Source of the DNA: Myxococcales bacterium
GTDB taxonomy: Bacteria > Myxococcota > UBA727 > JABDBI01
Assembly: GCA_023248545.1 (NCBI GenBank)
Contig: JAHFEF010000004.1
Span: forward strand, 22,043 to 86,042
Direction: 5' to 3'
Length of the DNA stretch: 64,000 bases
The notes beneath the pieces were generated by a model. The model ran no database searches and had not been told where the DNA came from. It saw nothing but the letters and a program-made list of their open reading frames with translations. The number at the start of each line of letters is the position of its first letter. The stretch's first letter is position 1. The position numbers and the translations under genes were made by a program. Of this stretch, positions 52,468 to 54,813 are shown one piece after another.

Positions 52468-54813
52468 CTAGGACTTAGGCTGAACCATTCTTTGGTGGGC
52501 TCTCACTTGCTTCAGTAGCTTGGCATTCAGATCCTGCAGTTCTCCGAGCTCGTCCTGGTACAAGCTCTCCATTTGCGATTTATCCCGATTGAGTAGTTTT
52601 ATTTGTGCCTGAAGCACTTCAATCTGCGACACAAATTCCCCTCGTTCCATGGCAAAATCTTTATTCAAAACATCGCTTTCTTCGGTTTTGACAGCGTTGG
52701 CTCCCTGTAATTCGGCGATTTTCTCATTGAGGGCCATCTCCCGATTATTAAACCACTCCCGATCCGAATCACGCTGAACCTCGACGTCTCGCAACAATTC
52801 GGCACCGGCACGCGCGTTCTCATGAAGTTGCTCCAGGCCAGCCATCCCTGAGTCCTCAAGTTCTCGACGCGATCTCCATTGCTCAACGAATAGGTCATGC
52901 ACCATAAAACTCTGCAGTTTAACCGCCTGCTTCACGGCGGCGTCAAATTGCGCCTCTAGCTTGGTCTTGTCGCCCTGCGTCGTCTCTAATGCCGTTTCAA
53001 TTTGTTGAAGACGCTTTTGATAATCCTGCGCGGCTATCGTAGAGAGAGTTTCGCGCTGCTGCATAGCCTGCTCCAGCATTTTAACTTGGACCCTTGCCTC
53101 GGCATCCTGCGATGCAGATCGTTGTGCCTCGTCGATCTGGCCCCGAAGTACGGCAAGTTCCATAGTATTTTGACTCGTGAGATCCTCTAGCTGCTCCTGG
53201 GTATTTTTTCGGATCGCTTCTATCTCCGCACGAGATCCTGCTTTCTGTTCTTCCAATTGCGAAGCATACTCGGCCTGCTGCAAAACCAAACGTTGTTCAG
53301 CAGTGGCTTTGGCAGCCTTGGCGGCAGCCAGCTCGGCGCGCAAATTCCCTGCTTCAGTAGACGATTGATTTTGGATGTGAGCCAATTGGTCTTGTAGGCC
53401 TTTTGCTTCGTCTTCTCGATCCGAAACATTTTTCTGAAGCGCACCCAGCTGCTCAGCCTGAGTAGCCAACTCGCTTTTTTGCTTTGCTGTAAGCACTGTG
53501 CTCTTTCTCGACTGAGCTTCCAAATTAACCAGCGACTGATGAAGTTCTTCTTGAAGCTGTTCGATAGATTGACGGCCAGCAGCCTCTTGCTGGGTTTGAA
53601 TGGCTGACTGAGTGAGTTCGGAGTTTACTTTCTCCAGTTTGGCAACTGGTGGAGTTACCGGCCTGGTGCGTGGCTCACGTTTTGGTTTGGTATCCTTAAT
53701 TTTCAGGAGAATTTGTTTATAAAGATCTTTAAATGCCTGCTCATGTGCTTTCCTATTTTCTGATTTATCTGATTTCAATTGTTCAAGGTTGAACTCCATG
53801 AGTTTTTTCTTTCTTTGGAGCTCTGACAACGACGGTTCGTTCTTATCAAGATATTCCGAATATTGTTGGATCCCAGTCAGCAAAGCATTCAACTTAACAA
53901 TAGGCCTGTCTTTGAGTCTATCTTCTTTTTTTTCAAGCTGACTGATAAGCTTTGTAATCTCTGTTTTTTCGGCGTCATTCGACGTTCGAAGGCGTTCCAG
54001 CAAATCGACATGTGCGTCCTGAATGTCATCGTAGCCTTGCAGAGACTGAATCTCAGTATTTTGTTGCGGGCGGAGGTGACTCAATGTCTTTGAAAACTCG
54101 GAAAATGGAATACCAGAAGGCCTTTCGACAGGGGTCTCAAAAACAACGTAATGCCCAACTGGCTGCACGAGAGTCTTGTTGCTTATTGGGCCTTTTGGGG
54201 CACCGACCTCTGTGGTGGGTTGATCTTTGGTGCCGATTTCATTGTGACGCATCCGAATACCCAGAGCACTGGCAAACTTAGTAATTTCCTGTGGGCCTTG
54301 ATAAGAACCAGGGACTGTATGAGTCACTCGGTTGGTAAAATCTCGAATAATTGACCGATTGGTATCTGTCGACATGAACATCATGATCTGGTCGTCTGAC
54401 GGGGGTTTATCTTTACCTAAAAAATCATCCAATTCTTCGAGCAGGCTGTGATACGCAATATTTTCCGACTTGGTCAGTGTTGGCATTTGCAGCACTGTCT
54501 CTCTTTCATTAGGCGTCATGCCCACAAATTGAGTCAAAAAGAGATAATTCGCCGCCGTAATCCAGCAGTTGCCATCATGTGGTGTGTCGCGTATGGCTTG
54601 ATTTTCTTTTTTTGCAAGCTCTTGAAGAGAAGAACTCTGCTGGCTTAAACGACTCAAATCGCCCTGAGAAATAAATTCGGATGCCCTCACAATCTTCACT
54701 TGCTGAGGCGTAAATTGGTCCACCGGTTGCTTTCCCAGAGCTTTGCCGTCTAGGCGCGCGGCAGCAGATTCAAGTCTGGGCAAAGAGGTAATATGGCTTA
54801 GAACGGATTCCAT
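52468..54813 (-). CDS. eukaryote-like OTU-type cysteine protease (putative deubiquitinase) fused to a roughly 550-aa coiled coil
   Basis: 781-aa ORF with no signal peptide. The OTU signature is in the sub-feature. Residues about 240-781 are Gln/Glu/Ala/Leu/Lys-rich heptad-like sequence. Confidence 0.75.
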   Translation of the reverse strand: MESVLSHITSLPRLESAAARLDGKALGKQPVDQFTPQQVKIVRASEFISQGDLSRLSQQSSSLQELAKKENQAIRDTPHDGNCWITAANYLFLTQFVGMTPNERETVLQMPTLTKSENIAYHSLLEELDDFLGKDKPPSDDQIMMFMSTDTNRSIIRDFTNRVTHTVPGSYQGPQEITKFASALGIRMRHNEIGTKDQPTTEVGAPKGPISNKTLVQPVGHYVVFETPVERPSGIPFSEFSKTLSHLRPQQNTEIQSLQGYDDIQDAHVDLLERLRTSNDAEKTEITKLISQLEKKEDRLKDRPIVKLNALLTGIQQYSEYLDKNEPSLSELQRKKKLMEFNLEQLKSDKSENRKAHEQAFKDLYKQILLKIKDTKPKREPRTRPVTPPVAKLEKVNSELTQSAIQTQQEAAGRQSIEQLQEELHQSLVNLEAQSRKSTVLTAKQKSELATQAEQLGALQKNVSDREDEAKGLQDQLAHIQNQSSTEAGNLRAELAAAKAAKATAEQRLVLQQAEYASQLEEQKAGSRAEIEAIRKNTQEQLEDLTSQNTMELAVLRGQIDEAQRSASQDAEARVQVKMLEQAMQQRETLSTIAAQDYQKRLQQIETALETTQGDKTKLEAQFDAAVKQAVKLQSFMVHDLFVEQWRSRRELEDSGMAGLEQLHENARAGAELLRDVEVQRDSDREWFNNREMALNEKIAELQGANAVKTEESDVLNKDFAMERGEFVSQIEVLQAQIKLLNRDKSQMESLYQDELGELQDLNAKLLKQVRAHQRMVQPKS
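54124..54591 (-). other. OTU-like catalytic region, residues about 75-230
   Basis: RDTPHDGNCWITAANYLFL (Asp80-Gly-Asn-Cys83, compare the OTU motif DGNCLFRA) and LVQPVGHYVVFE (His221-Tyr, compare the OTU C-terminal HY motif), about 138 aa apart. Confidence 0.6.

Follow-up and report, generated by a model that had tools for sequence, protein, structure and literature searches.

An otubain-like OTU-fold protein with a long helical tail from a fast-diverging family of uncultured Myxococcota

We describe a protein of 781 amino acids (aa) that carries an otubain-like OTU-fold domain and is encoded on the minus strand of a 64,000-nucleotide stretch of DNA from a Myxococcales bacterium (GenBank assembly GCA_023248545.1, contig JAHFEF010000004.1, positions 22,043 to 86,042; the whole stretch is hereafter referred to as the window). 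A first-pass annotation, made from the letters of the window, had read this gene as an OTU-type cysteine protease fused to a coiled coil and had proposed a bacterial deubiquitinase effector. The OTU assignment, more precisely an otubain-like one, is well supported at the level of fold and motif by the matches of a family profile to the PDB, by an AlphaFold model based on a multiple sequence alignment, and by profile-profile alignment. The family to which the protein belongs sits outside current sequence models. Deubiquitinase activity and effector status are no more than plausible.

An otubain-like fold outside current sequence models

Pfam and NCBIfam scans of the window protein returned no OTU or otubain match even at E<=10, the only returns being CesT and SMC noise, and the OTU profile PF02338, which the first-pass annotation had suggested as a check, gave no hit. 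Among the relatives, the best score against the otubain model PF10275 was 15.9 bits (cutoff, 24.3), reached by the paralog P0004 alone. When residues 1-275 were compared with 5.8 billion proteins in a word-indexed search, no match was returned. HMMER, run exhaustively over 1.84 billion cluster representatives, recovered five relatives only (E 6e-17 to 2e-9), and a sixth, P0007, was recovered as a cluster mate. Repeating the word-indexed search with the family profile returned P0004 and P0005 only. A scan of GTDB representative genomes with the protein and a profile scan of JGI metagenomes added no further members, and a metagenome scan with the back-translated motif DGNCW(I/V)T..NY yielded a single chance match carrying in-frame stops.

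The relatives made it possible to approach the fold through a profile. With the single sequence, a search of the PDB had given one marginal match (E=0.37), positioned precisely at the catalytic Cys loop of human OTUB2. With the six-member family profile, OTU-fold deubiquitinases made up 8 of the 9 PDB matches, all of them aligned at the Cys loop and including OTUB2 (E=0.0015), rice OTUB, nairovirus vOTU, and OTUD3. Profile-profile alignment of the family with human OTUB1 and Caenorhabditis elegans OTUB1 by hhalign covered the Cys loop only in the default local mode (E=5.5e-5) and spanned the whole domain in the greedy mode (E ~4e-5); the OTUB1 sequence used here is identical to chain 2zfy_A over residues 39-271. 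In the greedy alignment, the middle OTU motif SYQGPQEITKFASALGIRMRH pairs with the OTUB1 helix-strand element ESDHIHIIALAQALSVSIQV, which precedes the otubain sheet. The family alignments display four motifs, namely (A)IRD..GDGNCW(I/V)TA.NYAFL, SDDQLMSLITS, aYGGxDELxkFAxyxGIxLkH, and GHYVV(L/F)E.

Structure prediction led to the same fold. AlphaFold run on the single sequence was unusable (pLDDT 36); run as AF2 with the six-sequence alignment on residues 40-245, it gave a model with a pLDDT of 75 and a pTM of 0.78. The predicted structure has the layout of an OTU fold, a helical lobe with a central beta sheet, in which Cys83 opens a long helix (H44-59 of the fragment) and His221 comes directly before one strand of the four-stranded sheet. 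When this model was compared with the PDB by Foldseek, OTU deubiquitinases occupied all of the top 50 matches. The best of these were otubains (rice OTUB, human OTUB1, OTUB2, and C. elegans OTUB1; TMq 0.58-0.64, probability 1.00), while Simkania SnOTU (TMq 0.52) and OTULIN ranked lower, viral OTU proteins reached a TMq of at most 0.41, and Legionella LotA and the OTU deubiquitinase 7w54 gave 0.18-0.19. Because 8 of 9 profile matches and all 50 top structural matches are OTU proteins, we take the motifs to be beyond chance. The OTU-type cysteine protease of the first-pass annotation is thus supported by profile, by predicted structure, and by the residue alignment with OTUB1 given below. A generic coiled-coil artefact was considered as the source of the homology and ruled out, since the similarity sits in the globular N-terminal 260-370 residues.

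Among known systems, the eukaryotic otubains (OTUB1/OTUB2; MEROPS C65, PF10275) provide the best whole-domain structural match. They share with the window protein the Cys loop (I)R...DGNC...A..Y..L, the strand PGHY.(I/V)L, and the order of the Cys before the His-aromatic pair. The window domain differs from them in being only 14-19% identical and below the PF10275 threshold, in having Val or Ala across the family at the position two residues after the His (His+2) where OTUB1 has Asp267, and in being fused to a conserved module and a long coil in a bacterial organism. The bacterial OTU effectors (SnOTU, LotA/LotB(ceg23)/LotC, ChlaOTU, wMelOTU, and EschOTU) are likewise OTU-fold cysteine proteases of narrow taxa, often large and multi-domain, and SnOTU of Simkania is a recognisable structural match. 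However, these characterised effectors come from intracellular Chlamydiota and Pseudomonadota with defined secretion systems and have demonstrated deubiquitinase activity, whereas the window family is found in metagenome-assembled genomes (MAGs) of uncultured Myxococcota; HMMER searches showed no sequence relationship between the two, and in structure the window domain resembles eukaryotic otubains more closely than it does any bacterial OTU effector characterised so far. The viral OTU proteases (nairovirus vOTU, iridovirus, and giant-virus OTU) have the same fold, and a weak match to the Farallon virus vOTU was seen at the Cys loop, but their similarity is much lower and their context is that of polyproteins.

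The predicted active site and its missing acid

The two motifs on which the first-pass annotation had built its proposal were found where it had put them in the 781-aa open reading frame (ORF): TPHDGNCWITAANYLFL begins at residue 77, with DGNC at residues 80-83, and PVGHYVVFE begins at residue 218, with GHYVVFE at 220-226, which places His221 138 residues beyond Cys83, the sole cysteine of the protein. In the greedy hhalign alignment, Cys83 falls on OTUB1 Cys91 and LVQPVGHYVVFE falls on LLYRPGHYDILYK, hence His221 on OTUB1 His265. The window protein accordingly has a Cys in a D-G-N-C loop that is followed by a His-aromatic pair (H221-Y222), in the order Cys...His. Despite an overall identity of 26-35% across the family, 6 of the 7 members keep the Cys loop, and each of the 6 complete members keeps the His loop.

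The triad Asp80/Cys83/His221 that had been proposed at first did not hold in its third member. Asp80 is the conserved Asp of the Cys loop itself (Thr in P0007), and the canonical third position, aligned to OTUB1 Asp267, is Val223. No acidic or amide residue was found at His+2 in the window protein or in any of its relatives, all of which have Val or Ala there. OTU enzymes usually show the arrangement C...H-aromatic-D/N/E (Schubert et al. 2020, PMC7396840). Mutation of the acidic residue has been found to cause complete, intermediate, or no loss of activity across OTUs, and in A20-type OTUs and in Legionella ceg23, a precedent for non-canonical placement, the acid lies N-terminal to the Cys (PMC7396840). 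An alternative third residue of the A20/ceg23 kind is possible in the D/N76 that stands seven residues before the Cys (Cys-7). The conserved candidates for the missing acid would be Asp76 and Glu226 (His+5), the latter being kept in all members that have a His loop (P0001, P0002, P0003, P0004, P0006, and P0007). Cys83 would act as the nucleophile and His221 as the general base, with a third residue that is non-canonical or absent.

These same positions bear on the idea that the protein is a structural or scaffolding coiled-coil protein, in which the OTU domain would be a pseudo-enzyme that binds ubiquitin-like folds or another ligand and has no catalytic role. The canonical acidic residue is missing throughout the family, and in the ortholog P0002 the Cys loop reads HDDNS, with Ser in place of the nucleophile and with the neighbouring Gly and Trp altered, yet P0002 retains the rest of the domain, the module that follows it, and its 2894-aa architecture. 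From this Ser and the degraded loop it follows that catalysis is dispensable in at least one lineage. There is also a precedent in human OTUB1, which acts partly non-catalytically through binding of E2 enzymes, and whose structures 4dhj and 4ddg are among the Foldseek matches. We nevertheless regard such a scaffold as distinctly unlikely: the Cys, the His, and the Asn before the Cys are retained in the window protein and five others despite very low identity, the retained Cys83 is the single Cys in 781 residues, and loss of the acidic residue need not abolish OTU activity (PMC7396840).

Architecture, family, and chromosomal slot

The ORF was retrieved at its full length in the six-frame ORF list of the window, and its start codon is supported by the alignment of residues 5-57 with residues 4-52 of the ortholog P0002. 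Since the maximum Kyte-Doolittle score stays below 1.5 in every 19-residue segment, the protein has no signal peptide or transmembrane segment, in agreement with the first-pass annotation on the former. That annotation had further described an uninterrupted coiled coil of ~550 aa after the OTU domain, which would hold for the C-terminal part only: residues 390-778 are Pro-free and rich in heptads, whereas residues 260-389, which hold six prolines, form a conserved module and a Pro-rich linker. The module occurs twice in P0002 (phmmer E=4.7e-21 and 1.5e-5) and once in P0003 (5.6e-9), and a word-indexed homolog search gave no match to it outside these two and the window protein. Over residues 260-781, the mean heptad score was 0.549, compared to 0.435±0.029 (maximum, 0.512) in 100 composition-matched shuffles, i.e., ~3.9 standard deviations higher on what is a crude home-made measure. 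The long helix-compatible sequence and the hydrophobic heptad periodicity of the tail are what a coiled coil would show. This half of the protein had no PDB sequence match, no Pfam match, and no specific relatives but for a weak similarity of residues 637-754 to residues 983-1104 of the paralog P0006 (blastp E=3e-6). The coordinates of these elements are collected in Table 1.

Table 1. Features of the OTU gene, its flanking genes, and the partner genes of its paralogs. Coordinates are those of the window, except for the partner genes, which are given on their own loci.
Feature	Coordinates	Strand	Basis or remark
Complete ORF, 781 aa + stop	52468..54813	minus	N-terminal segment, otubain-like OTU domain, post-OTU module, Pro-rich linker, long helical tail
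N-terminal segment, aa 5-57	54643..54801	minus	Kept only in soluble ortholog P0002 (phmmer domain E=1.2e-4); non-hydrophobic
Otubain-like OTU-fold domain, ~aa 60-230	54124..54636	minus	AF2 model, Foldseek, profile against PDB, hhalign
Cys loop AIRDTPHDGNCWITAANYLFL, aa 73-93	54535..54597	minus	Aligns with the OTUB2/OTUB1 GDGNCFYRA catalytic loop
Asp76, conserved D/N at Cys-7, IRD/IRN strand	54586-54588	minus	Family alignment
Cys83, predicted nucleophile	54565-54567	minus	OTUB1 alignment; a model helix begins with this residue
Family-specific motif SDDQIMMFMSTD, aa 139-150	54364..54399	minus	Ser139 and Asp140 invariant in family alignments
Middle OTU motif SYQGPQEITKFASALGIRMRH, aa 170-190	54244..54306	minus	Family consensus aYGGxDELxkFAxyxGIxLkH
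His loop TLVQPVGHYVVFE, aa 214-226	54136..54174	minus	Aligns with OTUB1 LLYRPGHYDILYK; beta strands here in the model
His221, predicted general base	54151-54153	minus	Aligned to OTUB1 His265
Post-OTU conserved module, aa 260-372	53698..54036	minus	Core PIVxLNxLLxGIxxYxEYL...L..L.rKkkLmeFNLxQL
Pro- and Arg-rich linker PKREPRTRPVTPP, aa 377-389	53647..53685	minus	Proline positions in the sequence
Pro-free Q/E/A/L/K-rich helical tail, probably coiled coil, aa 390-778	52480..53646	minus	389 residues free of Pro
atpZ-like small membrane protein (PF09527)	52146..52385	plus	Convergent neighbour, one slot boundary; same neighbour in L084 and L087
sufB, first of sufBCDS	54878..56341	plus	Divergent neighbour, other slot boundary; same arrangement in L084 and L087
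Cys-rich partner gene of P0003	L084 8463-9998		Recurring C..W....C units
Cys-rich partner gene of P0006	L086 3-1364		Recurring C..W....C units
Cys-rich partner gene of P0004	L002 4545-5135		Recurring C..W....C units

The gene lies, as first described, on the strand opposite to its neighbours and between the ATP synthase genes and sufB. On one side, sufB (true start likely the ATG at 54911) is divergent and is followed by sufC, sufD, and sufS; on the other, the OTU gene ends 82 bp short of the convergent atpZ-like gene, which comes after atpF'-atpF-atpH-atpA-atpG and a 4HBT thioesterase gene. The same slot, with sufB divergent and atpZ-4HBT-atpG-atpA-atpH-atpF-atpF' convergent, is occupied by a family member in two further genomes. 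These are P0002, a hypothetical protein of a MAG labelled "Myxococcaceae bacterium" (GCA_037134495.1, locus L087), and P0003, a hypothetical protein of a MAG labelled "Myxococcota bacterium" (GCA_040384225.1, locus L084); the former genome is the closest to the window among the relatives, and P0002 is the closest ortholog. The flanking proteins are 55-95% identical between the window and these loci, whereas the slot gene itself is 26-28% identical to P0002 and P0003 over ~290-360 aligned columns and differs greatly in length (781 aa in the window, 2880 aa in P0003, and 2894 aa in P0002). It follows from the shared slot and from this gap in identity that the gene is an old resident that evolves very fast. 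Its GC content equals that of the rest of the window and is indistinguishable from the genome. A recent horizontal insertion was ruled out by the genome-like GC content together with the conservation of the slot in three genomes; neither island nor foreign insert, the gene has long occupied this conserved position in the chromosome, between housekeeping operons. A scan for promoters and terminators around the gene gave nothing exceeding shuffle expectation. The window SufB is 74-79% identical to proteins in GTDB genomes of many phyla among the matches listed.

The long orthologs carry a big shared C-terminal region that the window protein lacks (aa ~1654-2381 of P0002, whose gene is at L087 10001-18685; aa ~1920-2600 of P0003, whose gene is at L084 10001-18643). 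The two copies are 27.5% identical over 795 columns and contain GxGKS, DEYD, and SAT motifs, which resemble motifs I-III of helicases or P-loop NTPases; no Pfam or PDB sequence match was found for this region. It invites the idea that the OTU domain serves a large exported protein of many domains as its self-processing peptidase, cutting the protein itself or a partner to set a cargo domain free, and that the window copy has been shortened and has lost this cargo. The ~700-800 extra C-terminal aa of the ~2890-aa syntenic orthologs, and the absence of that region from the window protein, which stops 82 bp before atpZ, would suit such a history. We consider it very unlikely, as Pfam and PDB sequence searches recognised a toxin or cargo domain in neither long ortholog, the window protein has no cargo to release, and the 359-aa paralogs consist of a hydrophobic hairpin and an OTU domain and nothing else.

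A hydrophobic hairpin is a second theme of the family. P0003, P0004, and P0006 carry a Gly/Ala-rich hydrophobic segment of 40-60 residues ahead of the OTU domain, and directly 5' of each of the three genes, with a gap of at most 2 nt or a 4-nt overlap, lies a gene for a Cys-rich repeat protein. The complete partners (those at L084 and L002) start with a signal-peptide-like hydrophobic N-terminus, the L086 copy being cut by the contig end. The partners are weakly homologous to each other (E ~1e-5 to 1e-6), and that of L084 exceeds the Pfam threshold for the Paramecium surface antigen domain (29.6 versus 21.2 bits). OTU paralog and Cys-rich partner thus form a conserved gene pair. A hydrophobic hairpin combined with a long coiled coil is the typical architecture of inclusion-membrane proteins, and in this the three paralogs are similar to chlamydial Inc-type and other hairpin-anchored coiled-coil effectors. 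The likeness is architectural, without sequence similarity, and concerns another phylum; the window protein has no hairpin, and unlike in the Inc-type setting, no type III system was seen in the loci of the window family.

P0006 was found in the metagenome assembly of the window protein itself. Its contig has a similar GC content, and a tetranucleotide correlation with the window of r=0.86, slightly under the within-window range of 0.875-0.966; given this similar signature, P0006 may be a paralog that comes from the window genome itself or from a sister of it. P0005 (L003 141-980) and P0007 form one cluster at 90% identity, and P0005 lacks ~80 internal residues including the His-loop strand, such that GHYAVIE is present in P0007 only; the gap in P0005 reflects either a real deletion that removed the catalytic His or a fault of the assembly. 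Taken together, the family is a small, lineage-restricted, and fast-diversifying set of paralogs in uncultured low-GC Myxococcota.

Several other features of these loci were recorded. The F-type ATP synthase genes of the window are split, with atpF'-F-H-A-G at 47919-51747 (plus strand), adjoining the OTU gene, and a beta-subunit-type gene at 39607-41040 (plus), followed by small ORFs, ~7 kb upstream of atpF'-G; genes for the a and c subunits were not found near the split atp genes of the window. The split recurs in L084, where ech, tsaE, and other genes separate the beta and epsilon genes from atpF'-G. A 1136-aa protein (44435-47845, minus) has many HEAT repeats (PF13646, E=2e-64) and, at residues 433-494, a short match to the PARP catalytic domain (PF00644, 27.6 bits versus a cutoff of 26.7). 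Its gene is placed between ech and atpF', and because these two are adjacent in L084 and one small gene apart in L087, it is specific to the window genome. A PIN-domain protein (42912-43286, minus; PF01850, E=1e-22), which is probably a toxin of the VapC type and has a small ORF upstream, sits between tsaE and ech, which are neighbours in L084 and L087. A 694-aa protein (18070-20154, plus) joins ~380 unannotated N-terminal residues to a C-terminal eukaryotic-type Ser/Thr kinase (PF00069, E=9e-51), and a dual-specificity, eukaryotic-type protein phosphatase domain (PF00782 DSPc) is encoded at L084 1133-1948, a few kb from the OTU ortholog. Two tRNA-Pro(CGG) genes (61132-61205 and 62294-62367, plus) lie ~1.1 kb apart and enclose a 298-aa ORF (61343-62239) that is unannotated and without Pfam match; the pair may have arisen by a small duplication or may mark a site of integration.

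Possible targets of the enzyme

The reading that we tentatively favour, at a confidence short of even, is that of a catalytically competent otubain-like isopeptidase that removes ubiquitin or ubiquitin-like modifiers from proteins of eukaryotic cells. The catalytic head would be held, via the family-specific adaptor module, on a helical coiled-coil stalk of ~390 residues and would cleave the modifier off proteins of a host, prey, or grazer cell, where the stalk, or the hydrophobic hairpin in the paralogs, may localise the enzyme at its target structure. From the fold and the aligned residues we infer isopeptidase activity, and we extend this to a ubiquitin substrate, export, and a eukaryotic target on the following grounds. 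Characterised bacterial OTUs are ubiquitin-directed effectors (PMC7396840), and bacterial deubiquitinases are typically limited to narrow taxa (bioRxiv 10.1101/2024.07.24.604956), both of which argue for a eukaryote-directed enzyme here as well. The same direction is suggested by the paralogs with their Gly/Ala-rich hairpins, which are paired with secreted Cys-rich repeat proteins, among them the one above the threshold for the Paramecium surface antigen domain. The far faster divergence of the gene compared to its neighbours (26-28% versus 55-95% identity), together with its variable architecture, is what we would expect of an interaction protein. As for the phylum, Myxococcota include the genus Pajaroellobacter, which is an animal pathogen. 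Josephin-type ubiquitin clippases have been reported from Myxococcota (bioRxiv 10.1101/2024.07.24.604956), and we favour a eukaryotic target on account of these clippases and of the presence of Pajaroellobacter in the phylum, and because the window also encodes the HEAT/PARP-like protein and the Ser/Thr kinase described above.

A number of observations weigh against this favoured reading. Val223 occupies the canonical acidic position, the nucleophile is replaced by Ser in the closest ortholog, and the PF02338 and PF10275 models miss the window protein. No Sec signal or transmembrane segment was found in the window protein (type III/IV signals not scored), and no secretion-system genes were found in the 64-kb window or in the loci of the relatives. 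The gene content is free-living in look (shikimate pathway, GGDEF, and ExbBD in L087), the OTU gene resides between housekeeping operons and not in an island, and the partner proteins of the paralogs would equally suit a bacterial envelope complex. The host MAGs, which are labelled Myxococcota and uncultured, gave no sign of an intracellular lifestyle, and a literature search on host-associated Myxococcota returned nothing usable.

Much of this would suit an endogenous bacterial cysteine protease or isopeptidase that stays inside the Myxococcota cell or, in the hairpin paralogs, at the inner membrane, and is not exported; its substrate would be bacterial, be it a peptide tail, a conjugate of a ubiquitin-like protein, or a protein that the long coil has as partner or cargo. 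The lack of a signal peptide or recognisable secretion signal, the sufBCDS/atp position conserved over three genomes, the GC content shared with the genome, and the free-living type of gene content are all consistent with it, and hairpin anchors with translationally coupled signal-peptide partners would fit an envelope-spanning bacterial complex. On the other hand, no family member is adjoined by a gene for a ubiquitin-like protein, an E1, or an E2, an identity of 26% next to neighbours at 55-95% is rare for housekeeping functions, and the best structural matches are eukaryotic otubains. We hence hold such an endogenous enzyme to be somewhat unlikely. A bacterial otubain without effector function, i.e., a coil- or hairpin-tethered OTU isopeptidase that acts on an endogenous Myxococcota substrate, for instance a conjugate of a ubiquitin-like protein or a partner in the envelope or cytoskeleton, and that belongs to an envelope module with the Cys-rich partners, appears unlikely to us. 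If true, prokaryotes would be making native use of the otubain fold, which would then be no weapon borrowed from eukaryotes.

To the bacterial OTU deubiquitinases, so far characterised in a few intracellular Chlamydiota and Pseudomonadota, the present proteins would add an otubain-like family in Myxococcota that is missed by current sequence models and has a non-canonical active site. A Cys/His OTU protein without an acid at His+2 lends itself to asking how far the fold depends on a complete triad. The family bears the signs of rapid diversification, in which anchors, a large C-terminal domain, and even the catalytic Cys have been gained or lost. If the enzyme acts on ubiquitin, as we tentatively favour, it would mark an uncultured low-GC lineage of Myxococcota as an intimate partner of eukaryotic cells and would provide a new scaffold for studies of OTU specificity; if its substrates are bacterial, it would be relevant to how the enzymes of the ubiquitin system arose from prokaryotic ones.

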